Source: Prorocentrum cordatum (Eukaryota). Taken from it: a stretch of DNA of 56,749 nucleotides. The notes under the pieces are model-generated. The model was not told where the DNA came from, did no database searches, and saw nothing but the letters and a program-made list of their open reading frames with translations. Where the stretch lies: NCBI GenBank assembly GCA_963575745.1, contig CAUYUJ010000071.1:62001-118749 (forward strand), in the 5' to 3' direction. How positions within the stretch are numbered: position 1 is the first letter of the stretch; every line of letters starts with the position of its first letter. Position numbers and translations under genes: made by a program. Shown here one piece after another: positions 29,701 to 52,700 of this stretch.

Positions 29701-32700
29701 TGGGCACAGCACACATTCAGCGACAGGCTCCCTCAGTGGAAATTGCTCTACTACATGCGTTGAGTCCTTTGGTCGGAAAGGGCAGGTACAGGAACAGGCA
29801 GCAGTGCAAGCACAGCCGCGACAGTGAATACTTCACACACCCCTGGTCAGTATACGTGGTTCCTGAATCATACAGTCCATAGCAATACATACCACCCGCC
29901 TCTCCCTGTGCGCCCACGAAACGTGTGAGGGGTGTGCCGAATCGGGCGCGGGCACGCCATGCGGACCATGCCGCTGGGGCCTTCGGTGGAGCTCCCCTCG
30001 GCGCCCACAATACGTGTGAGGGGTGTGCCGAGTCGGGTGCGGGCACGCCATGCGGACCCTGCCGTTGAGGCCTTCGGTGGAGCTCCCTTCTGCGCCCACG
30101 AAACGTGTGAGGGGTGTGCCGAGCCGGGTGCGGGCACGCCATGCGGACCCTGCCGTTGGGGCTTTCGGTGGAGCTCCCTTCTGCGCCCACGAAACGTGTG
30201 AGGGGTGTGCCGAGCCGGGTGCGGGCACGCCATGCGGACCCTGCCGCTGGGGCCTTCGGTGGAGCTCCCTATGGGGCGACGAAACGTGTGAGGGGTGTGC
30301 CGAGTCGGGTGCGGGTACGCCATGCGAACCCTGCCGCTGGGGCCTCCGGTGGAGCTCCCCTCTGCGCCCACGAAACGTGAGGGGTGTGCCGAGTCGGGTG
30401 AGGGCACGCCATGCGGACCCTGCCGCTGGGGCCTTCGGTGGAGCTCCCTTCTGCGCCCACGAAACGTGTGAGGGGTGTGCCGAGTCGGGTGCGGGCACGC
30501 CATGCGGACCCTGCCGCTGGGGCCTTCGGTGGAGCTCCCTTCTGCACCCACGAAACGTGTGAGGGGGGTGCCGAATCGGGTGCGGGCGCGCCATGCGGAC
30601 CCTGCCATTGGGGCTTTCGGTGGAGCTCCCTTCTGCGCCCACGAAACGTGTGAGGGGGGTGCCGAGTCGGGTGCGGGCACGCCATGCGGACCCTGCCGCT
30701 GGGGCCTTCGGTGGAGCTCCATTCTGCGCCCACGAAACGTGTGAGGGGTGTGCCGAGTCGGGTGCGGGCACGCCATGCGGACCCTGCCGCTCGGGCCGTT
30801 GGTGGAGCTCCCTTCTGCGCCCACGAAACGTGTGAGGGGGGTGCCGAATCGGGTGCGGGCACGCCATGCGGACCGTGCCGCTGGGGCCCTCGGTGGAGCT
30901 CCCTTCTGCACCCACGAAAAGTGTGAGGGGGGTGCCGAATCGGGTGCGAGTACGCCATGCGGACCCTGCCGCTGGGGCCTTCGGTGGAGCTCCCTATGAG
31001 GCGACGAAACGTGTGAGAAGTGTGCCGAGTCGGGAGCGGGCATGCCATGCGGACCCTGCCGCTGGGGCCTTCGGTGGAGTCCCCTATGGGGCGACGAAGC
31101 GTGTGAGGGGTGTGCCGAGTCGGGTGCGGGTACGCCATGCGGACCCTGCCGCTGGGGCCTTCGGTGGAGCTCACTATGGGGCGACGAAGCGTGTGGGGTG
31201 GTACACCCTGCCGCTCGGGCCTTCGGTGGAGCACCCTACGGGGCCACGAAGCGTGTGAGGGTGTGCCGAGTCGGGTGCGAGCACGCCATGCGGACCCTGC
31301 CGCTGGGCCCTTCGGTGGAGCCCCCTTATGCGCCCACGAAACGTGTGAGGGGTGTGCCGAATTGGGTGCGTGTACGCCGTGCGGACCCTGCCGCTGGGGC
31401 CTTCGGTGCAGCTCCCTATGGGGCCACGAAGCGTGTGATGGGTGTGCCGAATCGAGTGCGGGCACGCCATGGGGACCCTGCCGCTGGGGCCTTCGGTGGA
31501 GCTCCCTTCTGCGTCCACGAAACGAGTGAGGGGTGTGCCGAATCGGGTGCGGGTGCGCCATGCGGACCCTGCCGCTGGGGCCTTCGGTGGAGCTCCCCAT
31601 GGGGCCACGAAGCGTGTGAGGGGTGTGCCGAATCGGGTGCGAGTACGCCGTGCGAACCCTGCCGCGGGGGCCTTCGGTGGAGCTCCCCATGGGGCCACGA
31701 AGCGTGTGAGGGGTGTGCCGAATCGGGTGCGGGCACGCCATGCGGACCCTGCCGCTGGGGCCTTCGGTGGAGCTCCCTTACGTGCCGACGAAGCGTGTGA
31801 GGGGTGAGCCAAATCGGGTGCGGGCACGCCATGCGGACCCTGCCGCTGGGGCCTTCGGTGGAGCTCCCCATGGGGCCACGAAGCGTGTGAGGGGTGTGCC
31901 GAATCGGGTGCGAGTACGCCATGCAGACCCTGCCGCTGGGACCTTCGGTGGAGCTCCATATGGGATCACGAAGCGTGTGGGCAGGGTGCGCCAAATTGGG
32001 TGCGAGCACGCCATGCGGACCCTGCCGCTGGGGCTTCTGGTGGAACTCACTATGCGCCCACGAAACGTATGAGGGGTGTGCCGAGTCGGGTGCGGCTACG
32101 CCACGCGGACCCTGCGCCGGGGGCCTTCGGTGCAGCTCCCTATGGGGCCACGAAGCGTGTGAGGGGTGTGCCAAATCGGGTGCGAATACGTCATGCGGAC
32201 CCTTCCGCTGGGGCCTTCGTTGGAGCTCCCCATGGGGCCACGAAGCGTGTGAGGGGTGTGCCGAAGCGGGTGCGGGTACGCCATGCGGACCCTGCCGCGG
32301 GGGCCTTCGGTGGAGCTCCCTATGCGCCCACGAACCGTGTGATGGGTGTGCCGAGTCGGGTGCGGGTGCGCCATGCGGACCCTGCCGCTGGGGCCTTCGG
32401 TGGAGCTCCCTATGGGGCCACGAAGCGTGTGAGGGGTGTGCCGAATCGAGTGCGGGCACGCCATGCGGACCCTGCCGCTGGGGCCTTCGGTGGAGCTCCC
32501 CTATGTGCCGACGAAGCGTGTGAGGGGTGAGCCAAATCGGGTGCGGGCACGCCATGCGGACCCTGCCGCTGGGGCCTTCGGTGGAGCTCCCTTATGTGCC
32601 GACGAAGCGTGTGAGGGGTGTGCCGAATCGGGTGCGAGTACGCCATGCGGACCCTGCCGCTGGGATCTTCGGTGGAGCTCCATATGGGATCACGAAGCGT

Positions 32701-33392
32701 GTGAGCAGGGTGCGCCAAATTGGGTGCGAGCACGCCATGCGGACCCTGCCGCTGGGGCTTCTGGTGGAACTCACTATGCGCCCACGAAACGTGTGAGGGG
32801 TGTGCCGAGCCGGGTGCGGCTACGCCACGCGGACCCTGCGCCGGAGGCCTTCGGTGCAGCTCCCTATGGGGCCACGAAGCGTGTGAGGGGTGTGCCAAAT
32901 CGGGTGCGAATACGACATGCGGACCCTTCCGCTGGGACCTTCGTCGGAGCTCCCCATGGGGCCACGAAGCGTGTGAGGGGTGTGCCGAAGCGGGTGCGGG
33001 TACGCCATGCGGACCCTGCCGCTGGGGCCTTCGGTGGAGCTCACTATGAGGCAACATGACGTGTGAGGGGTGTGCCGAATCGGGTGCGGGTACGCCATGC
33101 CAACCGTGCCGCTGGGGCCTTTGGTGGAGTCCACCATGTGTGAGGGGAGCTCCCCATGGGGCAACGGTCCGTGTGAGGGGTGTGCCGAACGGGGTGCTGG
33201 CACGCCATGCGGACCCTGCCGCTGGGGCCTTCGGCGGGGCCCACTATGGGGCCATGAAAAGTGTTAGGGATGTGCCGAATCGGGTGCGGGTACGCCATGC
33301 TAACCCTGCCGCTGGGGCCTTCGGTGGAGCTCCCTGTGGGGCCACGAAGCGTGTGAGGGGTGTGTGTGTGTGCGTGTGCGTGTGTGTAAGAG

Positions 33393-33425
<33 letters not shown>

Positions 33426-33856
33426 CGATGATGATGATGATGATGGTGGTGGTGATAATGATGGCGATGATGATGGTGGTGGTGATGATGACGAGGAGGA
33501 GGATGGTGCTGATGATGATGCTGCTGATGACGATGGTGATGATGATGATGATGATGATGAACTGGTGATGGTGGTGATGATGATCCGCATGGTGATGATG
33601 GTGGTGACGATGATGATACCGATAATGATGCTGATGGAAATAATGATGTTGATGATGACAATGCTGAGGATGATGATGATGGTGATGATACTGATAAGCG
33701 TGATGATAGTGATGGTGGCGGTGATGATGGTGCTGATGATGACGACGGTGCTGATGACGATGATGGTGATGATGATAATGATGCTGGTTATGATGCTGAT
33801 GACGATGACGATGGCGATAGTGATGGTGATGCCGATGCCGATGGCGATGTCGATGG

Positions 33857-33887
<31 letters not shown>

Positions 33888-36800
33888 AAGGGTGGTGGTG
33901 GTGTTGATGTTGATGTTGATGTTGATGCTGGTGTTGATGCTGATAGTGATGCTGATAATGATGATGCTGATGATGATGATGACGATGATGATGATGATCT
34001 TATTTCATTCATTGTGCCAGGGACGCTATTTGCTGCCAGGGGGCGAGGGCGACTGTCTCGCCAGCAGACGGGCGCGCGAGACAGACTGGGCAGCAGCCAA
34101 ACTCGAGAGACCAGAGAGGCGAGAGAGGGGGGGGAGGGAGGGAGACTTGAGCCGAGGCGGTTGCGGCACAGAGCATTGCAACGATCAAAGCACTACAAGC
34201 AGTTATATGATCTCATTTCATTCATTGTGCCAGGGACGCTATTTGCTGCCAGGGGGCGAGGGCGACTGTCTCGCCAGCAGACGGGCGCGTGAGACAGACT
34301 GGGCAGCAGCCAAACTCGAGAGACCAGTACTTGGCATCCCTGCAGACCCTGGCCCACGGCCGACAACATTATCAAACATTTACCGACGCAAGCTTACTGA
34401 GCCTCGCGTCGCGGAGGTTCGTCGCACTATTAACGAGCCAATCCGCACCCCACTGGGAAAACTCACGAGGGTATCTGTTCACGCTGAGAGCCCATGGGCG
34501 GCCAAGGGGATCGAGCGCCGTCAATCTGACGTGAAACTTGTTGTTGCCAGTGCACCTTCCACCGCGACCGTCACACAGAGGACGCGCGCTCAGTCGCGGA
34601 AAATCTGCGCCCCACGCCCACAGCTTAGTCGGGCGGGGGTGCAAGCCTCCGTACTGACAGAAGTTGAATTCGGCAGACTGCGAGGCTAGCGAGCACGCGT
34701 GCCTGAAAGAAGCGAGCGACGGCTGGGCCGAGCAGAGAGGGCATTCAGCTATAACAGGGACCCTTAATCGATGGCTCTCGAGGATCATGGCGGCGAGCGA
34801 ACCCCAGAAGCCCCGAGAGCGGGAGGAGGGGGGCCCAGGACCCGAGGAAGGAGAGGCCCACACCCCCAGGACCAGGGACCCCCGAAGCCACCCCAAGATC
34901 CTCTGGCGCACCGCGGGTCGAGACCAGTCAAGACCAGGATGCTTGTTGGGATCGAAACAGATGGCGGCGAATCCCCGAGCTCGCCAGCGCCGAACAATCG
35001 GCCACGAGGCGCTTCCAATCCCAATGAAAACCGAGCGAGGAAAAACGCAGGCAGCAGCAAGAGCTGCCGACAGCTGGCGCGTCAGATAGCCGTCCACCTG
35101 CTCGTCAGTGATGGTTTCACCTGGCCACGAGACGAGACGGCCCGCCTCGCGGGCACCGGCCACGGGAAAGGCGACCCCAGCGCTGCCGCCTCGATCAGCA
35201 TGACGAGGTGCGCGTCCACGCGCTGGCCGAACTCCATCACGTTGTCGGGCAGGTTGTTGATCTGCTGCTGGAGCTTGGTCCTCTTCGCGTAGCGGCGCAG
35301 TGAGGAGTCTGTGATCCACCTCCCGCGGTCCTTCACCTCGGGAAGGGAACGCCGCGCGGCCAGCAAGTCGTCGCTGGCCGCGCTGTGGCGCAGCACGTAC
35401 AGAGAGGGCTGCGCCTCCAGCCCCAGCAGCTCGGCCGCCTGGTTGAAGGCGTCGCGGACCTCCGCGACGTCGAAGTCCCACAGCGCCGTGCCGCCAGGAC
35501 GGGCGAGCTTGAGGGCCGCCCAGAGCGGCCACCAGTCCGTCTGATCCAGGGCCACGCTCTCGTCGGTGATCCCTGTCTTCCCAGGCCGCCCGTCCTCGCT
35601 CGGGTTGAGCACCAACCCCCACTCGCCGTAGCCCTTGCCTGCCAGCGGGTTCGGCGCCACCAGCGAATCGCCTCGAAGGCGAAAGGCCTCCGAGGGGCGG
35701 AGGTACGCCGCGAAGGAGAGAAGCACGAACATCGCGAAGGGCAGCTGGCCGAGCGAGATCATCGCGCCCACGATCGCCATCACGGCAGGCCGAGGGATCG
35801 GCAGCCGCACGCAGGGCGGCTTCAGCTTCTTCCAGCCGCCCAGCGCCCTGCACGCCCTCGGCAGCGCGGCGCGGGGGGGGCCCAGCGCTGGCAGCAGGTG
35901 TCGCAACGCCGACAGCGTTATCCGCCCCGTCGCCGTGTCGAAGCCGTCTAAGGCCAGGTGCGCCAGGAAGGCCGTCAAGATCACGTCGAGCTCCGACGAC
36001 GTAGTCCAGGACAGGCCCATCCACAGGCACCAGGTGACCAGCCTCTGGGCGTGCGCCGAGTAGCTCTTGGCGGTGGCGTCGGTGAGCGCCGCCGCCTCCA
36101 GGAAGCTCAGGCGGCCGCACTTCAGCTCCGTCAGGGACGCCTGGGGGGCGAGCCTCTGGCGCGCCAGCGTCATGGCGCGGGGAGGGCGCCTCCCGCGCCG
36201 AGGCCCGCGCGGCGCCGTCTCCACGTGGACGATCGCCCTGCCAGTGCGGCCCGACAAAGAAGCCCGACCTCGACGGGGCATCTGACGGGTTGAACTCCGA
36301 CGGCACCCAGCGCACGTACGCCCTGCAGCCCGTGGCGAGCAGCAGAGAGGTGATGCGGCGAAGAGGCCTGGTCAAATTTGCCGTCCGACCGCGGCCCTTG
36401 CCGGCGCTGAGAGCCAGAGCCAAATTGTCAACGAAGAGGAGGAGGCGGTGCCCCTGCAAGGGCCCCGAGCGCAGGAGGTGGCGGAGGGCGAACTCCAGAG
36501 CGTCCCCCTCAGACTCCAAAATGTTATTCCCCTTCGCGTGGACCCTGCTCGAGTGAACCACCTTCCAGTCGGTCTCCCTCAGGATCTCCTCGGGGACCTC
36601 CGTGAAGCCAGGGAGCCCCGCCCCGACGTCCAGGGCGTTCTCAAAGTTGGCGACGTCGTCCAGGCCCCGAAAACGCAGGAAAAGATGCCCAGGCGAATTT
36701 CCAGAATTTGCCGGGGCATCTTTTTGCACCATTTTTTCTGGTCGAAGTAGGCCCTCCTGACTTGATGAAGCCTCGTGAGCGTCTCCCAGAACGTGACCGG

Positions 36801-39800
36801 AAGGGCGCTGGACAGCAGAACTGGGGACCTCGGGCGAACCTGAAAGGGCATGTTGTCGAGCGGCTATGGCGTCATAGAACCTGTACCTGACCTTCTCGGC
36901 GAGACGACCGATCTCGGCGACGACGGGGACGGGCAGCGTGCGCCGACAGACCCCAATGCCATACCCCGACGAGTCAGACGCGGTGACATCGGGCGCCCAC
37001 GGCAACCGCCAAGACGTGGCCCACAGAGGCAATGTAGATTGGACCCACTGAAGCTCCCTGAGGACCCCGTCCCAGATCTTAGTCGGCTCCGGCGAACGAC
37101 TCCGCGAGAAAGCGAAAGTGGCCGACAGCATTGACAAGGTCTCCCGCCTGCTCAGCATGGCCCAAGTGATGTGACCGACTAAGGATGAGAGGGCACGGGG
37201 CGAAATCTTTCCGTGGCGCAGAACCGATCGAATTCCAAGCCGCAGGCGAGCAAGGCGGGCACACGGGACCCTCATGGCCCCCTTGATGCCGTCGAACTCC
37301 AGGCCTGTGAAGATCATGGATGTACGAGCACCCTGGACCTCGTGCACGGGCAAGTGATGACGAGACACAGCCTCTGAGATGCGCTGCAGCACGCGGTCAG
37401 CTAGCTCACGCGAGCCCGCGACCACGCAGAAGTTGTCGACATAGGCAGCCACGGCCCAGTCGTCAGTGCGCTGCAGCACGGTCGGCGGGGCCCCGTCGAC
37501 GATGAAGCGATGGCCCTCCACGGCCGCGTCTCGAACGATGATGTTGGTCAGAGCATCCTGGCAGAAATGCAAGGCCCAGTTCCAGCCCATGGGCATCACC
37601 AAAATCTCAGGCACCACGTCGATGTCCAGCCCCATGCCGTCCAAACGCAGAACCCGATTCGTGACACACGGAAGGGTGAAAGCGCGGGCCAGCTCCGAAG
37701 GCAGCTTCATGTGGTAAAAGGCGCACTGGATGTCCGCTGCCGCCATATAGCCGCTGACCTCGGGGCTGATCTCCATGCCTGCCCAGGACGCTGAAGTAGG
37801 TAACTTGGTCCCAGCAGGCTCCACGAATGAAAGGTTAGCAATGCGAGTGTCGAACACCATTCTCAGGCTCCCGTCCTTTTTGGTGACGAAGAACACGCCC
37901 ACTGAAGGCTGCTCCCGTTGCCGTCGAGGACGAAAGCGCAGCATCCCAGCCGCATCCAGTCGACGAAGAAAGTCGGCGTAGCGGTCGGGGCAGCTCAAAA
38001 GGAGAGGGTCGACGTAAGGCTTGACCAGTCCAGACTCCTTGCGCCTGGCGTCTGCCTCGGACTCGGAGACAAGCATACTCGTCCTCCATGACTCTAGCCG
38101 ATGCAAAGCGGCCTCGCTGCAGATATCGCCCAAAGGAGTGGGGGTCGTACCTGCGGCGGGCCAGGACACAGAGTCCTTGGCGTAGGGTCGCACCACGGTA
38201 TCGTCTTCGCAATAACCAGGTGTATGTCGGAGCAGCTCTTCGAGGGCGGCATCCGAGGTGGCCTTGTCGACAGGCATGTCAGCAGGCCACGAAAACGATT
38301 GAAATGAATCGGCAATGTGCTCCAGCGCCAGCCTCTGCGGTAAGTTAGCTGCACCATCGGGCGCCGAAACCTCGCGTCCACAACTGCGCTGGCCGTTGAG
38401 GTCGCTGAGGCTATCTATGCACTCGTTGGCCCAGACTCGCCAGGCAGCACCGCGATCACAACGTTGACGGGCACGACGAGAAACACAAAACTCCCGACGG
38501 GCGTCGACAGCGAGCCGAGGTAGGGGAAAGATATTGCGCTGGCGCTCGTCGGACGAGACCGCCATCGCGAAGCTGTGCAGCTCCTGGCCCGGGAAGTCCC
38601 AGCAGCCTCTGACGAGGGGCCTGCCACTGGAACGCGAAGCGCCGTGGGCTATTGACGCAACGCCCGCTCCTCGCGGGCCTTCCTGCGTTCTTTAGCCACC
38701 GCAGCCTCGGCTTTCAACTCGTCTGCAATCCACGTGCTGAGGAGAGGGCACACGCAAACGTTGCCGCGGCTCTCCTGCGCGCCGAGGAACAGGTTGTTCT
38801 CGACGCGATCGTCCAGCACGTTGCTCTTGTCCTTGTCCTTCTTGTCGTTACCCTTCGGCTTGAACGTCTGCTCAACCACCTTCTCTTCCAGGAGTTGGAG
38901 GCGACGTGCAGTCATCTCCAGATGCGAGAGCTCACCCACGTTGACCTGGTCATAGCACACCGCCAGCTCCAGGATGCGGCAAAGGAGGGCGTGCTCGCGC
39001 GTGATCGGGTCGTCCTCCGACATACGCCACTCCGACATCCACTTGGTGTGCCAAGCTGTCGGGGTCCCCGCCTGTCGCTGGATGTGGGCACACACCCAGG
39101 CGGCAGTCCTCGGACCACGCACAGGCCAATCCCTCCAGTTCGTCGATGAGTGGAGCATCGTTCCCTCACGGAAGTCCCTCCAGCGGTCGCCGCGGACGTC
39201 GATGCTCACGGCGTTGACGCGCAGGTCGGCTGGGGCAGCAGCCGCCGCAGGCGGGGCCGCCGCTGGCACCGCGAGCGCGCCCCCAGCCGCAGCCGCGGCG
39301 GGCACCGCGCCCGGCGCCGCAGCGGCCGGCGGCGCGGCCGCGGCCGCGGCGGCGGGCGGGGCCGGCAGTGCAGGGGCCCCAGGCGCGGCGGCGGGCGCGG
39401 CGCCCGCGCCCGCCAGGGCAGCCACCAGGCCAGGCATCGCGACGCCCCCTCCCGGCGCTGCTGCCGCAGCGCCTGCGCCTCCAGCGGCCGCCATCGCCTC
39501 TGCAGGGGCCCCCGCGGCAGGCCCGCCAGGTGCGCCAGGCACCGCCGCGGGCTGCGGCGCAGGGTCAGCAACCACGTGATTGCCCACCGCGAGGCCGCCC
39601 ACGTTGCCAGCGGCCAAGGGCATGTTGGCGGGCGACGCGGGGCGGCCGCCTCCGAAAAGCGCGGCCGCCTCCATGATGCCAGCCCACACGTCGGCGTCGG
39701 ACGGCAGCGCTCTGAAGCCGTACACGCGAAGCCCAGCTGGCCTCTCGCCCTGCCCTGCTATCATGATGATGCCCGCGATGTCGGCATCTGGAGTGCCACT

Positions 39801-42800
39801 CTCTTCATATCGATCACCGTCAGGCGTGATGACGTATACTGTCGTCCCAGGCCCGCGCCACACAATGAGCCGCTCATGCCACACGTGCGCGCCAGGCACT
39901 CGATATCTGACGAGCGCCCAATGCAACTGGTGAGCCATATTCACGCAGTAGAGGCCTTCTTATCTCTGACGGCCCTCGCCTGGGCGCGGGCCGTTTCCTC
40001 GAAGCTGGCAGCAGGCGCCTCGGCGGCGGGGCTGCTCTCCGCCCTGCGGGCAAGCAGCGCGCCTCCTGCGGCACCGACGGCCAGGCCGACGGTCAGCGCG
40101 GCCGCCGCGTAGGCCGCGATGAGCCCCCCGCACGAGGGCTCGGGCACCTGGCCGCCAGCGCCCGCGCAGACACAGGCGGGGATGGCGGGGCAGGTGAGCT
40201 GCGGCGCGCAGGCCCCGCAACTCGGCGCGGCAGCGCGTGCCACCACGGAAGCTCCCACAGCCTGAGCCCCGTATCGCAGAATGTCTGAAAAAGATGCGAC
40301 GATGTCTTGCATGGGAGCCACACAAATTAAGACTTGAGCCGAGGCGGTTGCGGCACAGAGCATTGCAACGATCAAAGCACTACAAGCAGTTATATGATGA
40401 TGATGGTGATTATGGTGATGGTGATGGTGATGGCGACGAGGAGGGCAGAGGCAAGGAGGGGGAGGACGGAGGAGGAGGAGGAGGGGGAGGAGAAGGATGC
40501 GGGTACTGTCTCTTCAACACGAGGACCCAAGACCACAGGATAGTTGGGAAGAAAAGATTAGGAAACCATACTTATGACGGAACCGTGGCTTACAAAGGGC
40601 GCATCTGGCGCCGAGATGACTGCGAACTTGGTGCATATCGCTGACGATGGTATCCACTTCCCAGAGCTGCTCTGATCAATCCCAGCATGCCCCGCTCCCC
40701 AGGTGCAAACTAGAAGCTCGCGCCCAATGAGGGCGAGCACAGCTGTGGCACAAAATGCCAGTGGTGTGGCTGCTAGGGCTTGTGGCGGGCAAGCTGAGAG
40801 CTGTCCTTTTTCACGTGGCTGCCCTTTCTCGATCCTCCTCCGCCTCCTCCTCCTTCTCCTCCTCCTCCTCCTCCTCCTCCTCCTCCCCCTCCTCCTCCTC
40901 AATCAAGCCAGGGGCTCAAGCCTGGTCCAAGCATGGGGCTCGAGCGGGCGCCTGTGCTCCTCCCGGGGCTTGGTGTCCACTTGTGTGCAGCTGCGGCTTG
41001 AGGTCGTCGTTTTCCGCTCCGCGGCGTTCGGGGACAAAGCGGCGCAACACCACGTCTAACTCAGTCCTTCACCGTGGTGCTCGAGGTATTGGCGTGGTGG
41101 TTTCTCCGCCCATCCGTGTCGCACATTGTTCGTTGGTGCATCGCGAGCCTGCGCGCATTTCCACTGATATGGTCATTGTGCAGTTCGACGTTCTGGTGGG
41201 ATGCGGCTCAGGTGGATTTCCAATGGAAGGGCTTAAGGGATGAGCCGTGGTAGCTAACATTCACTTCGCCCTCGAGCCTGGTGTGCCCTGGTGCCTCATC
41301 GGCTTCTGGAGGGTTTCTTGGTGTGTCTGCTGCGATGTGGATGTGGCCTCTGGCCTAGGCTTTCTGCGTTGTTTTCTGTGTTGTCGTGCTGATGCAGGTG
41401 GAGATCTTCATCTATGTGTTGGCCACGCTTTATCCTCATGGGCCTCATCGTGCGGGTGAGGTTTGCACGCGTATCGCGTCTTGTTGTACGCGGCTACAGC
41501 ATGGGCGGTGTGGCGAGTCATAGCAGGCCAGCTCTGGTGCAGTACTTCGGCAAAGTGTTGACGCTGTGTTTTCTCAATAGTTTGTCTGGCTGGTGGTTGA
41601 AAGTAGCTTGCAGCTCGCTACACACCTTGTGAGTTTTGCTGGGCTGGGCATTGCGATTCAATCATAACGGACGGCACCGTATCGGGTGTGCTTTCATCAT
41701 TATCGTCTTCGCCTTTATTTCCTACGCGGTCATGAAGTGATCGGGCGGCCTACCCAGCAGGAGAACCCTTCCCTTTAGCGTAATCAGAATCAGAATCATG
41801 ATCTCCTCCTCCTCCTCCTTCTCCTACTCCCCTCCTCCTCCTCCTCCTCATCATCGTCATCGTCATCATCATCGTCATCATCATCATCAACATCATCATC
41901 ATCAGCAGCATCATCATCAGCATCATCATCACCATCATCATCATCAGTATCAGCATCATCATCAACATCATCCTTCTCTATTATCATCCCTTCTTCTCCA
42001 CCTCAGCATCGTCGACGTCATAGACATCATCGTCATCATCGTCATCGTCATCATCGTCATCATCATCGTGGCCCGCCGCTCCGGCGCCCACAGCCAGCCC
42101 GCCTCCGCCGACGGCCCTGGCCGGCGCCAGACCTGCGTTCGCGGCAGCCGCTCCAGCGGGCGCGACGTCAGCGCCTCCGGCCCCACCAGCTGAAGGGACG
42201 ATGGCGCCAGCCCCTGACCCAACGGCACCAGCAGGCAAAGACCCCAGCCACCGCCAAGAGCGCCGCGTCGTGCGCTGCAAGCACCGGCGTGGCCTGGGCC
42301 ACGAAGGCGGCAAGCTCGGCGGCCGTGAGCGGCTGGGCGAAGTCGTACACGGCGACGCCCGCTCTCGCCAGCGGCGGCGTGATGGTCCCGCCCTCGCGGA
42401 TGAGCGCGCGCCCTGGGCCGACCCTGTACCAGTGGCGGAGGTCGTCGTTGTCCTCGGTGAAGTACTCGACGAAGAGGCCGCGGTCTGGCGACACAACTCC
42501 TGCGTGGCGAACGTCCAAACCAACGATACCCATCACCGCACGCGCGTGAAGCAATGGAAGCCCTGCCACGCCATACGCCACAAACAATTGATATCCGACA
42601 TTCATAACCGGTTGGCCGTCGCAAGCAGCCCGCATCCACGAGCGACTCGACGAACGAGGACAATCGGCAAGGTGGCCAGGACATCCCTCGGCTCCGCCTC
42701 GATCCCTGCCAGCGGCCGCCGGCGGCAGCCCCGGCAGATCACGTTCCCCGCCGCCCTCAAGCAGCGCGAGGCGAGCACCCGCACCAGGAGCGGCAGGAGA

Positions 42801-43531
42801 CCGAACGAGACCTCGAAGCCCCAGGAGATCTCGTTCTTGACCGGCTCGGGGCAAGCCGGGCAGAGATCAGGCCACACCAGCTCCACGGGCGGCGCCGCCA
42901 CGGGCAAGCACCGCTCCAAGCCCGCGCACAGCTCCTCGGCCAGCGCGGGGGTCGGCGGTCCGGCCGCCGGGCAGCTCCGCGCTGGCGGGTCTGGAGCCCG
43001 CGCCGCCGAAGGCGACGCATGGCGACGGGCTGGCGCCGGCGGCGCAGGCCCGGCACGCGGCGCGAGCCACCACTGGCTCCGCCACGCGCTGCGCGCGTGG
43101 AACGCCGGCAGAGTCGCCGCCTGGCCCGCCTGGCGCAGCCATGCCGCGCCGAGGGTTCGGGCGGCCTCGGGCCAGACGGGTCGAGCAGGACAGGGCAACA
43201 CCTTGGACCAGGCAGAGCAAGAGGCCAGAGGGAGGCGACGAACGGCGACACGGCACAGCACACACAGCACACACAGCACACACAGACACACAACACAACA
43301 CAACACTACACTACACTACACTACACTACACTACACTACGCTACACTACACAACACTACACAACACCGAACGAGCGAGGACAAGGAGAAAAGGGCGGTAG
43401 CTGGCGATTCGAAAAAGGCTTGTGCCGAAGCGGTTGCGGATGCAGCCGCGCGGCCCGTTTCCGCATCACGACTACTGTTCTAGAACTGCCCATCAGAACT
43501 TTCTTCATCGTGTCATCGTCAGCATCATCAC

Positions 43532-43606
<75 letters not shown>

Positions 43607-43621
43607 AATCATCATCATCAG

Positions 43622-43680
<59 letters not shown>

Positions 43681-43690
43681 GCATCATCAG

Positions 43691-43741
<51 letters not shown>

Positions 43742-46700
43742 AATCATCATCGCCACCACCACCATCATCATCATCATCGTAATCAGCATCATCACCATCA
43801 CCATTATCATCAGCATCAGCATCAGCATCATCATCATCATAAGCAGCATCATCAGCATCATCATCTGCACTACCATCATCATCATACTCATCAGCATCAT
43901 CATCCTCAGCAGCAGCAGCATCATCAGCAGCATCATAAACGTTATCAACGATCAGTATCATCCTTCTCCTCATCATGCGTAGTTGTATGTGTTGCTCCCC
44001 TTGTCCACGTCCTGCCGCCCCTCCCTCCCTCCGCCCTCCCTCCCTCCTCTCTCATCCCCCTACATCCACACTTACACACTGTAAAAACTACTCTGCTGTC
44101 TCCCCTGACCATCCACCATCCCTCCCCCCTCCCTCCCCGTCCTTCCTCCCTCCCTCCCTCCCTCCCTCCCTCCCTCCCTCCTCTCCCCCCCCCCCCCCCC
44201 TCCCTCCCTTTCCCTCCCCCCCTCCCCACCTCCTCCCTCCTCCCTCCCTCCCTCTTCCTCCTCCTCCTCCTCCCTCCTCCTCCTCCTCCTCCTCCTCCTC
44301 CTCCTCCTCCTCCTCCTCCTCCTCCCATCATGCTCTCCCTTGCCTCCCCCCTCCCTCCCTCACCCTTCCCCCATTGTTCCCTCCCTCGTCCTCCGCCTGT
44401 TCTCCCCACCCCGCGTCCTTTTGCAGCTCCTTCACGACCTCCCCGCCCCGGCCGATGACCTCTCGGGCGGCGGTCCCGAGGGGAGGCGGAGGTCTCGGGA
44501 GGCCAGGAACATCGGCCTTTGGGCCTCGGGGGAGAGGAGGAGGAGGAGGACAACGGCGACGGCCACGGCGACGGCGACGGCGACGACGACGAGGCCGAGG
44601 ACCAGGACGACGAGGAGAACGGCGACGACGAGAGCACGAGGACGAGGGGGAGGACGCAGGGGGGGAGGATGCCAGGGCGCAGCCGTTGCCCGGCCCCCCC
44701 GCGGGCAGCCCCTTCCCGGCAGCGCGCCGCCCGCCCTCGTCGCTTTTTTTTCTGCTCGCCTGCACTGCGGCCCCGCAAGCGGCGACCGGAGGGGGAGCTT
44801 GAAAGAGGAGGCCTTCTCGGAGGGCGGCGGGGTGTTTCAGAAACGAGGAGGAGGAGGAGGAGGAGGAGGAGGAGGAGGAGGAGGAGGCCTCCGATCGTGA
44901 CAAGTTGTCTGCATCTTCGAGTAAGGCGTGGACAACTTCTCAGGAGGCCCGAGGCCTCGAGAGCCTCGCGAGAAGGCCCGCCCCGTCGCTGCTCCCCCCC
45001 CGGCTCGCCGCCGACGTGTGCGCGGCTTTGCGCGCTGGTCGCGTTCAAAACCGATGCGTAAATCCCACACGGCGACCTCCGTTCTTCAATACGTGGCGTC
45101 TGGATTTCCACAGAGAGGGGTGGGGTTGGGAAAGGAGGGAACACGTGTGCGCGGCTTTGCGCGCTGATCGCGTTCAAAGCCGATGCGTAATCCCACACGG
45201 CGACCTCCGTTCTTCAGTACGTGGCGTCTGGATTTCCAAAGAGAGGGGTGGGGTTGGGAAAGGAGGGAACAGGGACCGCTGCCGAGGACGAAGTAAGTCA
45301 GCAAGGGGAGGAAGGCGGGGCGGAGTCCGGAGGAGGACATGGAGGGGGGGGCAGCGGGGTCGGCTGGACGCAGCATTACACCACTCTGTGCGCCGATCAT
45401 TGGTTGACTCTGATTTCCCCACGAGCCCAGGTAAGCGCGGGGCGAGAGACCCTGCCCGCCCGCCCGCCTCAAACGAAGGGGTAAATGCTAAGCGACAGGG
45501 CCCCGAAGCGAAAGGGGGAGGAGCGGGGAGGGAGGGAACGAGGGAGAAAGAGAGAGAGGGAGGGAGGGAGAAAAAGAGAGAGAGAGAGGGGGACAAAAAA
45601 GAAATGTGCAGGAGAAGGGTTCGAGAGTTTCTGCGCGGTCCTGGGGCTCTGGCTTGGGGCAGGGGGCAAGCCCCGCCCGCACAACTTGGCGCGCGACCGC
45701 CGCGCACGCAGGAGCGCGCGACGCGGGGGGGGGGGGGGGGCCAAAGGAAAGAGGAGGAGGGGAGGAGGAGGAAGGAGGAGGAGGAGGAGGGGAGGAGGAG
45801 GATGAAGAGGAGGAGGAGGAAACGGAGGAAGAGCAAGAGGAGGATACGCGGTGGCCCGAGGTGTCTCGCCGTGGTGCCCTGTGGTGTCCAAATGGTGTCC
45901 CGTCGGTGTTCCGTCGGCGGTGGGCGGGCGGTGGCCCAGGGTGTCCCGCCGTGGTATCGATAGTGAAGGTCGATAGTGAGATCGATGAGGAGATCGCTGG
46001 AATGGGATCGATAGTGGAGTCGAACGTGAGATCGACAGTGAGGTTGATTGTGACACTGGTGGTGAGATCGATAGTGAGATCGATAGTGAGATCGATCGAG
46101 AAATCGATAGTGAGATCGCTAGTGGAATCGATAGTGGGATCGATCGCTGAATCCATTGGTACTAAGACTGGCCGCGAAGTCGATAGTGGGATCGGTCGAG
46201 TGAGAGCGAAAGCGGGGACGGTAGTGGCATTAAATCGCAGCGCAACATCGTTATCAGGCGTCGTCGCTGACTCGAGGGCGCGTCACCAGCATCGTCATCA
46301 TCAGACCCACCGCATTTGCCAGCAGTCGATTATTCTTCCCCCCGCCCCCCGAACCTCCTACTCACCCGAAGGGTGATCGTGGGGGTATACTCTGTGGCAA
46401 GATGTACGGGCAGCCGTGCAACAGGTGTGAGAGCGACTGGAGGAGCAGTGGGGTGGACAGAGAGAAGGCGGAATACGAGGGAGGAGGGAGTGAGGGGAGG
46501 GGAGGGAGGGAGGAAGGGAGGAAGGGAGAAGGAGAGGAGAGGAGTCGTACAGTCGAAACTTGTCCATCAGACCGTGGGTCAAGAACACGAGCCCCTTTGC
46601 AGAGGCCCAAATACCCGCGCAAACACTCCAGACGAAGAGCACTCCCGGGAGGAGAGCACACACACGAAGAACGGAAGGATACCCCTGGAGAGCTGGGGCT

Positions 46701-49700: not shown

Positions 49701-52700
49701 CTCGGGCACCCTCGGCTCTGCTGGTCTTGACGCTGGGACCGCTGGTGCGCTGCCGGGCGCGGCGGCGCACGGTCCCCCCGCGGCGCCTCGTGCCCAACCG
49801 GCTGAGGCCCCTGAAGCGGCGATGGTCGAACCAGCGCGTCTCTTCCAGGAGGAGGTCGTCGAGGCGCCCGTGGAGCTCAAGTTGGATCTGCTTCTACCGG
49901 TGCCGCTGCGCCGTGGCACGGCCCCCCTCCACATCGCCACCATCAACGGGGACACGTGGCAAGGGGCTCGCACGGTGCTGGAGTGGAACGCTGCAGCCGG
50001 CAGGCGCTTTGACGTGGCCTTCGTTCAGGAGACGAGGTTCCCCGACTCCGAGGCGGCTGGGGGCGCTCGCCAGTGGTGCTTGGGCCAGGGCTGTCATCTT
50101 GCCCTGGGCCCTCCTCGTCGGACTGGCGCTGAGCGTCTGGCTGTCAGTGGCGGCGTGGGCCTCTGCATCGGCACGCACATTGGGGTCTTCAGTGGCATTG
50201 CTGTCCCTGATGAGTGGAGCCATCGCATTGTGGCCAGGAAGATCCACCTCGGCGAGGGCTCGGTCCTCTTGGTGATCTCTCTCTACATGATCACCTCCAT
50301 CGGCCTCACTGGTGATAACCTGGCGCTCCTTGCGGAGGTGGCGTCTATTGTTGGGCAGTTCCCTGTGCCCTTCATCATCGGCGCCGACTGGAACGTTGAC
50401 GCCCACGACCTTGTGGCCAGCGACTGGTGCCAGGAGGTGGACGGGATCATCGTCAACCCTGGTGTCCCGACATGCGGGGACAACGAGTACGACTACTTCG
50501 TCATGTCCCGCTCGCTGGCCCACCACACCTCCCACCCTCAGGCGTTTGCTGGCACACCTGCCGGCACTCATGTTCAGGTGTGTTGCACCCTGGGGGATAT
50601 TTGGGAGCATCCGACGGCTTGGCTGGAGGATCCTCGGCGGCCCTTCTCAGTAGCCAGGAAGGCTGTCGGATCTGAGGAGTCGGTCAAGCCCAGGGAGCAG
50701 CCCACCTCCGAGTCGCAGCGGGAGGCTGCGGAGTTGCTCGAGCCCTTGGAGTGTTTGCAGACAGCCAGTGCGAGGTGGTTCGACCTAGCCGAGGCCTCTC
50801 TCATCCGCTCCCAGCAGATTGACTTATCGGTTGCTCATCACCACCGTGGGCGAGGTCGAGGCATTCGTCTGGTGGAGCGGCCTTTGCTTGAAGTCCATGA
50901 GCGGCGGCAGCGCCGTCACGACTCGTCCGACACCGAGGCTTGGTGGAGCCTTCTTCGCATTTGGAGAGCAATGCTTCGGTGGGGGCAGGCCAGCCGTGGT
51001 TCTCGCGGCAAGCGACAGGTGGTGCGTGCCCGCCTTCATCTTCAGGCCCAGGCCCTGACATTACCTCCAGCTGTGGCTGGTGCCGAGGCCCTTCGTACGG
51101 TGGCCGTCGACAAGTGGCTTGGGCTTGCTGAGCGGGACAGCCCTCTTTCTGCTTGGTTTGAGGATCTTCTCGAGGAGGAGGTGGCCGTGCGCAGGCGAGC
51201 TGACGCGGCTGCCAAGGCCAAGCTATGGCGAGATTTTTGCAAGTCGGCCCTCGACGGCCCCGGGAGGATTGCGCACAAGCTTATTAAGCCGAAGATTGTC
51301 GAGCCTCTCCCTGTATCCCTGCCTGGCGACGTTGATTCCCTGCCGCAGGTGGGCTCGCTGGCGGTTGAGGGTGTTTTGCAGGAGTGGCTTCCGCTTTGGA
51401 TCAAGGACTCGAGGAATGATGAGCAGCACGCCTCCGAGTGGAATGTGGCGACAACCCTTGAGCCCATCAGTGTCTCGCAGGTGCGCTCGGCCATCCTCTT
51501 CTTCGGCAGGAGGAAAGGCCTGGGCTGGGACTCCTTTCATCCGCGGCTGCTTGGGGAGCTCTCGGACGCCTTGGTTGCTCGATTTGCGGCCATCTTAAAC
51601 CGGTTTGAGCTCACTGCCGAAGTCCCCGAGCTTTGGACGACGATGTTCGTTTTCATTCCCAAGCCTCCTCCTGACGTCGGCCGTCGGCCGATAGGGCTCC
51701 TGGGCCTATGGCCCCGCGTATGGTCCAGGGTACGACAGCAACGAGTTCGCGGTTGGGAACACAGTGTGGATGCCAGCTTCTTTTGGGGCAAGTCCGGCGA
51801 TACGGCGGCCGACAGAGCTGCTTACATCCACAACCTGCTGGTGGTGCATGCTAAGCGCCACGGCTTCGTCAGCGGCACTCTGTACTACGACGTGCGGAAG
51901 TTTTACGAGAACATCTCCCACGGCGCCATGCGCGAGGCTGGCAGGCACTACGGCTTTGACGAGCAGCTGCTGCGATGCCTGTGCGCGGTCTACCGTGGAC
52001 CCAGGCGGGCCCGCTGGCTTGGCGCGACCTCGCGCCTGGTTGTCCCCAACGGCACGGTGATCGCGGGTTGCAGCTGCGCGACTGGCACCGTGAAGCTCAT
52101 GACCCTGTGCGTTTTACGGACTATTGCCATTGAGACGCCTGTCTGCCGGCCGCTGAACTTGGTGGACGACTTGAAGGTGCATGCTGTGGGTTCTCTCCGC
52201 ACTGTGGCTCGGCAATTGGTCAAAGCAGCCACGATTGTAGCCACTCAGATGAATGAGCTCGACCTTCCGCTCAACTTGGACAAGACCTGCTTCCTGTGTT
52301 CGAGCCCTGAGTTGCTCGAGGCTCTGCTGGACGACCCCGACTGGCCGTTCGACGAGTCCTTCCTGGCCACCACCCACCGTGACCTGGGTGGCGACGCTTC
52401 TGACGGCAAGGCTCGCCGCGTGCCTGTGCAAAACAAGCGCCTCCTCGAATCGTCGGCCGCTGCGACTCGGCTCTCGAAGATTGGGCGGGGGAGGGAGGCT
52501 TCTCGGGTGCACAGAGCGGGCCCAGTCGCTAAGGCCACGTGGGGGGCGCACATTAATGGTCTTGGGAATTCGGCTCTGAGGACTCTGAGGGTGGCCTCTG
52601 CCAGGTCTTTTGGCCCCCTCCAGCCTGGATCCTCCCTCGGCCTCACCTTCCTTCTTTGCGGGGCCCCCCAGCGGGATCCTCTTGTTTCGACGACGGTGGA

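Follow-up and report, generated by a model that had tools for sequence, protein, structure and literature searches.

A probable gene for a small cysteine-rich membrane protein lies directly before gag in a tyrosine-recombinase retrotransposon of Prorocentrum cordatum

Does a tyrosine-recombinase retrotransposon of the dinoflagellate Prorocentrum cordatum carry a gene that the usual inventory of such elements lacks? In the textbook account, these elements encode a gag protein, a reverse transcriptase with ribonuclease H (RT/RH) and a tyrosine recombinase (YR), sometimes together with a methyltransferase or a hydrolase. The question is raised by a 56,749-nucleotide (nt) stretch of contig CAUYUJ010000071.1 (assembly GCA_963575745.1, positions 62,001 to 118,749 of the forward strand), hereafter the window, in which an element on the minus strand (33994-40398) holds an additional open reading frame (ORF) of 123 codons, ORF0, just before gag. 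An earlier note on this DNA had taken ORF0 for a membrane protein coupled to gag and had stated that no upstream membrane protein was known in such elements; we likewise found none in the searched literature on tyrosine-recombinase elements. Our reading as a whole, to which we give a probability of roughly 0.6, is that ORF0 is an accessory gene with the build of a membrane protein, that it is the leaky-scanned first cistron of the element RNA, and that its product tethers particles to a membrane. The first part of this reading, that ORF0 is a conserved gene for a small membrane-type protein, is highly probable.

The gene and the parts of its predicted protein are as follows.

39941..40312, minus strand: ORF0, with its ATG at 40312, 123 codons and TGA at 39943..39941; predicted small Cys-rich single-pass membrane protein
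40229..40309, minus strand: ORF0 residues 2-28, amphipathic or hydrophobic N-terminal helix in the AlphaFold2 (AF2) model, possibly a signal peptide or a hydrophobic patch
40130..40219, minus strand: ORF0 residues 32-61, Cys cluster C-x2-C-x5-C-x5-C-x-C-x11-C
40049..40129, minus strand: ORF0 residues 62-88, predicted transmembrane (TM) helix with G76-x3-G80, followed by RR
39947..40012, minus strand: ORF0 residues 101-122, basic C-terminal helix (..ARAQxxxVRxxR..), a motif conserved across sub-family 1

The description given in the earlier note, a frame of 123 amino acids (aa) with a Cys cluster, a hydrophobic run and then RR, proved accurate. Six cysteines at residues 32, 35, 41, 47, 49 and 61 (SCGAC..LTCPAIPACVC..SC) precede a hydrophobic run of 27 residues (62-88), which is followed by RR at 89-90 and a tail of 33 residues. 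Both checks of the TM segment agreed with it: the maximum Kyte-Doolittle hydropathy over 19 residues (KD19) is 1.98, at residues 64-82, and the AF2 model places a helix at residues 62-93. This model was built on 29 ORF0 sequences and has a mean predicted local distance difference test (pLDDT) score of 76, against 54.7 for an earlier model from 9 sequences. Its helices span residues 2-28, 62-93 (block pLDDT 81-94) and 101-122 (block pLDDT 81-95), and the hydrophobic moment of residues 2-19 is 0.57. In an alignment of 13 ORF0 sequences C32, C35, P37, C41, C47 and C49 are invariant, and C35, C41 and C49 are conserved in at least 90% of the 29 sequences. Within the TM segment, G76 and G80 are invariant in the sub-family to which the window's ORF0 belongs. 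N-x-S/T sequons number zero in the window's ORF0 and are almost absent across its relatives, some of which have a juxtamembrane cysteine that the window's ORF0 does not.

From the N-terminus onwards, a signal peptide or a hydrophobic patch would thus come first, then a small outer segment rich in disulfides, then the single TM helix and lastly a tail in the cytosol. We infer this topology, with the C-terminus inside, because basic residues lie C-terminal to the TM segment, which is only suggestive. The search of profile and structure databases for a known family, which the earlier note had proposed, came back empty. Pfam matched no family for ORF0, for gag, or for the ORF0 and gag of the second family described below; the ESM Atlas gave no usable match for ORF0, and a Foldseek search with ORF0 returned a best E of 4.5 in BFVD and 0 matches in the PDB. 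Comparison of the ORF0 profile with PDB sequences brought up anoctamin-6 (E 0.008) and MAP17 (E 0.1), which we set aside as weak, compositional matches and do not read as homology.

To what extent does ORF0 differ from the frames that GC-rich DNA produces by chance? In first-order Markov (Markov-1) simulations of 1 kb of DNA with the local GC content of 60-73%, an ATG-initiated ORF of at least 123 aa arose in 435 of 1000 cases. The length of ORF0 is therefore not beyond chance, and its significance comes from conservation. A word-seeded search returned eight proteins that are 60-88% identical to ORF0, one of them a Prorocentrum cordatum gene model, and the ORF0 profile, compared with 1.84 billion representatives, had 17 matches at E<=1e-3. 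The relatives found at the profile level include proteins of 121-164 aa with about 30% identity. These keep the start methionine, the pattern C-x2-C-x-P-x-L-x-C-P..C-x-C, the TM segment and the C-terminal helix with its ..A-x-A-Q-x3-V-R-x-R-R.. motif.

We also analyzed how copies vary, by comparing the contigs of four public DNA runs with positions 38600-40420 at an identity of at least 80%. Among the 40 variable places listed out of 214, nine of the ten in ORF0 are synonymous third-position changes (P=3.6e-4), and the tenth is G62A, which is found in homologues too. For gag, which served as the control, the corresponding figure is 24 of the 30 that were listed. In one contig a +1 and a -1 indel lie 6 nt from each other, and together they restore the frame. 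The ratio of nonsynonymous to synonymous differences (pN/pS) was computed for pairs of the related metagenome loci that are introduced below: it is 0.54 in ORF0 (P=0.013) and 0.20 in gag for the pair L004/L008, and 0.13 in ORF0 and 0.19 in gag for L021/L022. The earlier note had proposed a dN/dS comparison across copies; the listed variants and these two pairs show coding constraint on ORF0.

The position of ORF0 was assessed with a search by gag alignment, which retrieved 47 metagenome loci with a gag homologue (designated by L numbers). Sequence upstream of gag is available at 34 of them and lacking at the other 13. As a criterion independent of sequence similarity, we required at least 4 Cys within 50 residues and then a 19-residue window with a hydropathy of at least 1.6. 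This strict criterion was passed by 20 of the 54 same-strand ORFs upstream of gag, at 20 loci; of the ORFs elsewhere in the same loci, 1 of 243 passed it (Fisher 1e-15). At the 20 loci the ORF runs up to gag. Eight more loci have such an ORF in a relaxed form (five: L003, L013, L021, L022 and L044) or a cut form (three: L001, L004 and L019). Conservation of the position, on which the earlier note had wanted a wider survey, accordingly extends to 20 of the 34 assessable loci under the strict test and to 8 others in relaxed or cut form. In a set of 20 loci, L013 among them, the proteins are 96-177 aa long; KD19 is at least 1.65 in 19 of 20, and the N-terminal 11-residue hydropathy is at least 1.8 in 14 of 20. 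They have 3-8 Cys before the TM segment and 1-4 K/R within 12 residues after it. That ORF0 is a mere regulatory upstream ORF, or a chance frame in GC-rich DNA with a functionless peptide, is scarcely credible and was rejected: the simulated frame lengths and the fast evolution of ORF0 between distant loci would suit such a frame, but the Cys pattern, TM segment and tail helix are kept at about 30% identity, variation is biased to synonymous changes, and the ORF is specific to its position.

Sequence similarity between the upstream ORFs is more limited in reach. A hidden Markov model (HMM) of 13 ORF0 proteins matched the same-strand ORF just upstream of gag at 7 loci with E<1e-3 and at 2 more weakly, and further upstream ORFs share the build of ORF0 but differ in sequence. 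One group of these, sub-family 2, reads C-P-x-C-x-V-T-C-G-x-x-S-C-P-x-V-x-C-T-T-G-H-I-E-L, followed by the TM segment. In a gag tree with 20 rows, the members of sub-family 2 group in a single clade (support 100/100), so that the ORF0 sub-type follows the gag tree. A signal-like, Cys-rich TM ORF is also present in the basal pair, L012/L043. Because the basal pair has the ORF and the sub-types track the clades, ORF0 predates the diversification of this retrotransposon clade. As far as the aligned loci tell, it is an integral and ancient part of the clade, always directly before gag or overlapping it. At L035 (3-494) the upstream ORF has a TM segment, a polybasic stretch and an ARAR..RR tail motif, with no Cys cluster on the available sequence; it may be a variant form of ORF0.

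In Prorocentrum cordatum itself, ORF0 and gag are annotated as one protein in the gene models P0024 (525 aa) and P0010 (430 aa), and P0025 (1544 aa) consists of an ORF0 fragment, gag and pol. More generally, in the models P0010, P0011, P0024 and P0025 (430-1544 aa), ORF0, gag and pol are run together, even with neighbouring host-like exons, and ORF0 is therefore hidden in the current annotation. A direct pattern search found no ORF0 relatives in viral_contigs or metagenome_contigs, and no gag relatives were found in viral_contigs.

The window holds parts of a second family, for which the earlier note had claimed an upstream Cys-rich frame at the same position.

42602..43147, minus strand: second-family ORF0 relic, open but without an ATG, with an ATGA overlap with gag at 42605-42602
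42168..42605, minus strand: truncated gag of the second family, 145 aa, with a microsatellite behind it

The frame is present: 43315..42602 reads ..LCPACPEP..FEVSFGLLPLLVRVLASR..CRGCRRR.., and the ATGA overlap is where the note placed it. This copy has no ATG, and its gag is truncated. There is no Met in 237 stop-to-stop codons, the hydrophobic run is broken by R and E, and comparison of the frame with ORF0 gave no significant similarity (E 2.1). The protein P0009 is 75% identical to the frame (181 aa, from residue 57, with the same stop, and with conservative matches at only 79% of positions), and where it has a Met the window has CTG, at 43138-43136. Three ATGs lie inside the span of the frame. 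The gag fragment extends over some 115-145 residues and is then broken off ahead of the microsatellite. The window's second-family copy is a decayed 5' remnant, and the claim holds only through an intact relative, L013. The second-family gag fragment matches the N-terminus of the L013 gag (BLASTP E 2e-14; also by tblastn), and the L013 gag belongs to the same clade. L013 has an intact upstream ORF of 165 aa that runs from the nearest upstream ATG (494 nt free of ATG) and ends in ATGA; it shares PCPAC..SW.EV.FG.LLLL.ELA with P0009 (E 2e-4). By these matches the second family itself is real. The hydrophobic segment of the L013 ORF scores 1.30, and a TM helix in this sub-type is doubtful.

How do ribosomes reach gag behind ORF0? 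The ORF0 stop of the window adjoins the gag start, just as the earlier note described, and the junctions of the clade take several forms.

39936..39946, minus strand: ORF0/gag junction of the window, GCG TGA AT ATG, with a 2-nt spacer and gag in another frame
Spacer of +1 to +4 nt: L026, the window, L003, L011
1-nt overlap (TGATG/TAATG): L001, L004, L006, L007, L008, L021/22
ATGA overlap: L013 and the window's second family
Overlap of 20-56 nt, 9 loci: L039, L037, L031, L019/20, L028/29, L024, L036, L045
Overlap of about 133 nt: L012, L043

The pentamer TGAAT, which the note had seen at both junctions of the window, is indeed at both, but it does not recur at the junctions of related loci. We rejected it as a shared signal and regard it as coincidental.

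Between the starts of ORF0 and gag, ATG is nearly absent. There are 5 in 6712 nt over 20 distinct loci, compared with an expectation of 67 (Markov-1) or 101 (from the density in gag), which corresponds to 0.74 per kb between the starts against 15.1 per kb in the first 900 nt of gag. In 16 of the 20 loci the interval holds no ATG at all, and the window has 0 in 371 nt. For 17 of 22 loci the nearest ATG upstream of gag, in any frame, is the ORF0 start, and 12 small ORF0 homologues from databases contain no internal Met in 1562 residues. The two starts also have different contexts. At position -3 of the ORF0 start, 17 of 20 loci have a pyrimidine (P=0.004) and none has an A; a G at +4 is seen in 4 of 20 for ORF0, against 13 of 20 for gag. 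The window has CCCATGC at the ORF0 start and AATATGG at the gag start. A weak first ATG and an ATG-free stretch up to the second start are the classical signature of leaky scanning in eukaryotes. Because ATG is nearly absent from ORF0 in all frames and the context of the ORF0 start is weak, we favor leaky scanning, which is probably the main route to gag.

The sequence in front of ORF0, in the 5' terminal repeat A1 of the element, bears on the same question.

40333..40353, minus strand: spliced-leader-like stretch at the 3' end of A1 (..CCGCAACCGCCTCGGCTCAAG), 20 nt before the ORF0 ATG

The last 8 nt of this stretch are the 3' end of the dinoflagellate spliced leader, in the 22-nt form printed in PMC6050394. 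Within 60 nt upstream of ORF0, the heptamer GCTCAAG is present at 13 of 20 loci, at distances of 4-36 nt from the ATG (12.1 per kb, against a background of 0.11 per kb), and the spacer between it and ORF0 is free of ATG in 13 of 13. This suggests that the element RNA is trans-spliced, or carries a leader relic, at the stretch. With a leader there, the ORF0 ATG would be the first on the message and the ATG at 40363 would go unused, the start of the transcript being predicted. The stretch is copied in the internal repeat A2, at about 34146-34166.

Two other routes to gag were considered. Termination-reinitiation, by which ribosomes would translate ORF0, stop and restart at the adjacent gag ATG, was the mechanism proposed in the earlier note, and stop-restart systems of this kind include calicivirus VP2 and influenza B BM2. 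It would suit the part of the clade in which stop and start touch or lie +1 to +4 nt apart. However, ORF0 overlaps gag by 20-56 nt in 9 loci and by about 133 nt in L012/L043, and reinitiation needs no ATG-free upstream ORF, whereas ATGs are depleted about 13- to 20-fold. TGGGA, a motif from calicivirus work, occurs within 100 nt upstream in 0 of 8 loci with a tight junction. As the stop-to-start distances vary so widely, stop-restart is an unlikely common mechanism; it could add to leaky scanning where stop and start touch. Thus, of the membrane anchor with reinitiation that the note had envisaged, the conserved coding and the single-pass membrane build stand, and reinitiation is made unlikely as the general mechanism by the 20-56 nt overlaps and the depletion of ATG. 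The second route, programmed ribosomal frameshifting, would join ORF0 to gag and give a membrane-anchored ORF0-Gag beside free Gag. Many loci have a different-frame overlap of 20-56 nt with conserved sequence (VDGRRxLG in the ORF0 frame), as frameshifting would require, but this conservation is expected from dual coding alone. Neither the window nor the loci with a 1-nt overlap offer a usable overlap, the gag frame of the window is open for only 7 codons before the gag ATG, and the depletion of ATG would be left unexplained; we consider frameshifting very improbable.

With leaky scanning as the favored route, the following course of events can be proposed. ORF0 would be the first cistron of the element RNA, its ATG being the first after the spliced-leader-like sequence and in a weak context. 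Ribosomes that skip this ATG would scan on and start at gag, and each RNA would yield little membrane protein and much gag. In the membrane protein, the Cys segment (core C-P-x-C .. L/S-x-C-P .. C-x-C) would face the lumen or the outside and the tail would be cytosolic. The protein would then anchor particles of gag and RNA at a cellular membrane, where they would be assembled or trafficked or, possibly, passed on to another cell. Particle-membrane tethering as the role of ORF0 is a tentative proposal, which we rate at somewhat less than even odds.

The strongest competitor to tethering, unlikely as we judge it, is a cell-cell fusogen. According to PMC11952523, LTR (long terminal repeat) retrotransposons of the MDG1 group in Drosophila carry sORF2, a TM protein of about 70 aa encoded upstream of gag that resembles the FAST fusogens of reoviruses. 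There sORF2 shows the same localisation as Gag, its proposed role is the passage of capsids out of follicle cells and into the oocyte, and similar ORFs are proposed for nackednaviruses and some picornaviruses. By analogy, ORF0 would pass particles between cells at gamete fusion or in dense populations, and the element would be infectious without an envelope gene. The build of ORF0 is like that of sORF2 and FAST-like proteins (PMC11952523) in its size (about 100 aa), sense orientation, position upstream of gag and single TM segment and, by prediction, in an amphipathic or hydrophobic motif before that segment, basic residues after it and an amphipathic tail helix, although the N-terminal segment may instead be a cleaved signal peptide. 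ORF0 has also been retained through deep divergence of the elements. On the other hand, our searches found no sequence or fold similarity, residue 2 is Gly in 0 of the 20 loci, so that the myristoylation motif that defines sORF2 is absent, and with 1-4 K/R there is only a weak basic patch. In a walled, single-celled host, the chance of cell-cell fusion is limited. The broader idea that these elements lack an envelope but are transmissible, with ORF0 carrying gag particles over membrane contacts at gamete fusion or between neighbouring cells or species, is if anything a little less likely still.

Less probable again, and by a clear step, is a small oligomeric membrane pore of the viroporin kind, or a modulator of a host membrane pathway, in place of a tether. 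GxxxG is a helix-helix packing motif, and G76-x3-G80 is invariant in the sub-family of the window; the small size of ORF0 would fit as well. But the motif is not kept family-wide, no column at all being invariant among the 29 sequences, and ORF0 shows no pore-lining polar pattern.

Several points weigh against reading ORF0 as a membrane-tethering first cistron. All sequencing data used were DNA contigs, so that expression of ORF0 is predicted. No such ORF was found at 6 of the 34 assessable loci (L009, L030, L032, L033, L035 and L042). Going by its alignments, ORF0 is fast-evolving outside the Cys core and the TM segment, and distant locus pairs are saturated, with ORF0 pN/pS values of 0.43-1.09 that are uninformative. 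Four of the 20 loci have 1-2 ATGs inside ORF0, only half of the gag starts (10 of 20) show a purine at -3, and the -3/+4 rule itself is assumed for dinoflagellates from general eukaryotic knowledge. The spliced-leader-like stretch of the window differs from the printed 21-mer at 6 of 21 positions (elsewhere there are 3 mismatches in L006, at 64-84, and 5 in L011, at 178-198), and the ATG at 40363, further upstream in A1, is in frame. The Cys segment was modelled by AF2 at low confidence (block pLDDT 52-57), and the structure and family searches gave ORF0 no match that hints at a function.

The element that carries ORF0 runs in the order A1, ORF0, gag, pol/YR, B1, A2, B2.

40330..40398, minus strand: A1, 5' terminal direct repeat, 69 nt, 100% identical to 34143-34211
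38649..39938, minus strand: gag-like ORF1, 429 aa, named by position only
34372..38565, minus strand: pol ORF, 1397 aa, with RT/RH, then a linker overlapping the YR gene, then a conserved domain at the C-terminus
35082..36281, minus strand: YR ORF, 399 aa, nested in pol in another frame
34207..34327, minus strand: B1, internal repeat, 121 nt, 98% identical to 33994-34114
34143..34211, minus strand: A2, internal copy of A1, the same 69-nt repeat
33994..34114, minus strand: B2, 3' terminal repeat and 3' end of the element, the same 121-nt repeat

Profile matches to the enzymes are weak. RVT_1 matched below the cut-off (E 0.012 for the pol of the window, 1.1e-5 for that of L024), and the RT profile had no PDB match. 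The pol alignment keeps FFVxKKxGxLRLIFDTRxLN and YVDN, which we take to be RT motifs. For the YR ORF, Phage_integrase (E 0.0095) and Phage_int_SAM_1 (E 0.0025) were both below the cut-off, and a profile of 6 YR ORFs matched XerD with E 0.0074; the residues R195, K235, R298-H299, W322 and Y331, invariant in the YR alignment, presumably correspond to the catalytic pattern. Behind gag, RT homologues occur in 31 of the 47 loci; YR homologues occur in 14, namely in every long locus. For Symbiodinium DIRS-like elements, the main text of PMC5890265 describes an A-coding-B-A-B arrangement, and it reports that dinoflagellate DIRS RTs align poorly with Pfam. Mainly because of the repeat architecture, the gene order and the conserved motifs, we accept the class of the element, which by these features is a split-direct-repeat (DIRS/PAT-like) tyrosine-recombinase retrotransposon.

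Some further features of its coding part deserve mention. The YR gene lies wholly inside pol, whose frame is open across it, in the window and in L008, L011, L024, L036, L039 (in two long pieces) and L045, and about 1.2 kb of this pol/YR overlap appears to be dual-coding. After the overlap, pol ends in a C-terminal domain of 235 aa (34375-35079, minus strand), which is found in 12 loci (E 2e-19 to 6e-4), has no match in Pfam or the PDB, and sits where DIRS elements carry a methyltransferase. Residues of about 115-260 of gag (39150-39600) form a low-complexity core that is rich in Ala, Pro and Gly, with up to 85% GC. Unrelated metagenome contigs pile up there with loose ends (depth spikes at 39271-39453), and coverage at the core is therefore uninformative on the element.

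The surroundings of the element are repetitive. Just past its 3' end, at 32500-33364, lies a tandem array of units of about 90 nt, with 9 copies that are 73-91% identical to the first. Long microsatellite tracts of trinucleotide type (GAT/GGT/GGA and their complements) occur at 33370-33930, 40395-40500, 40830-40900, 41800-42080 and 43400-44000; they flank both elements, cut off the second-family gag and create long spurious ORFs in several frames. On the plus strand, 49822-54747 holds an ORF of 1641 aa, apparently another large polyprotein of the retroelement type.

Retention of a fourth gene, for a membrane protein, throughout a deep clade alters our view of the replication of these retrotransposons, and suggests a membrane-bound step or even passage from cell to cell. 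If the transmissible reading were true, fusogen-like genes before gag would be a convergent and widespread strategy of retroelements, from insects to unicellular algae, and would offer a route for horizontal spread among dinoflagellate genomes. Little is known of how dinoflagellates control translation; with its first cistron free of internal ATGs and placed after a spliced-leader-like sequence, the element provides a clear case in which leaky scanning can be tested. A profile of the ORF0 family would also improve the annotation of repeats in dinoflagellate genomes.

How does ORF0 compare with known systems? Viral bicistronic mRNAs that use leaky scanning share with the ORF0 RNA a weak first ATG, an ATG-free stretch to the second start and a second ORF that uses a different frame and can overlap the first, as gag does. 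In contrast, ORF0 would stand on a retrotransposon RNA, seemingly with a trans-spliced leader, and its initiation is predicted from sequence. The env-like ORFs of LTR retrotransposons and insect endogenous retroviruses are, like ORF0, extra genes for membrane proteins. Env genes encode large glycoproteins, lie downstream of pol and are expressed from spliced RNA, whereas ORF0 is tiny (123 aa), lies upstream of gag and is almost without N-glycosylation sequons.

Closest in the element itself are SymbioDIRS-Dnmt3 and other dinoflagellate DIRS-like elements (PMC5890265), which share with the element of the window the A-coding-B-A-B arrangement and, as predicted here, a divergent RT with poor Pfam scores, a separate YR ORF and a further Pol domain. 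The words "gag" and "transmembrane" have 0 occurrences in the main text of that paper. For DIRS-type elements in general, our literature search, outside of which subscription-only papers lay, found no description of a membrane ORF or of leaky scanning.

FAST proteins, at about 100-200 aa, are of a similar size and bitopic, as is predicted for ORF0. Their small ectodomain bears a hydrophobic motif, a polybasic stretch adjoins the membrane and the tail contains an amphipathic helix, features that ORF0 may share, and cysteines play a part in certain FAST ectodomains such as that of p10. ORF0 differs in having no sequence or fold match to them and no acylation motif, and in being encoded by a retrotransposon and not by a dsRNA virus; fusion would be a matter of analogy only.

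With sORF2, as PMC11952523 presents it, the parallel is closest. Both are small, in sense and upstream of gag on the full-length RNA; both have one central TM segment with an amphipathic or hydrophobic motif on its N-side and, after it, basic residues and an amphipathic tail, as far as predicted for ORF0; and both have a primary sequence too divergent for homology searches to reach beyond the clade. The host elements are different: that of sORF2 has an integrase and LTRs, that of ORF0 a tyrosine recombinase and split direct repeats, in a unicellular alga. ORF0 is the longer protein (96-177 aa), lacks the MG myristoylation motif and an sORF1 partner, and, unlike sORF2, has a hydrophobic N-terminus compatible with a signal peptide. 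It also has a conserved Cys cluster, and the word "cysteine" is absent from the main text of PMC11952523. By this analogy ORF0 may work like sORF2 and FAST proteins, and we do not file it as a member of either. If the parallel with this 2025 finding in insect LTR elements, where small FAST-like proteins precede gag, holds, retroelements of unrelated origin would seem to have arrived at one solution by convergence.

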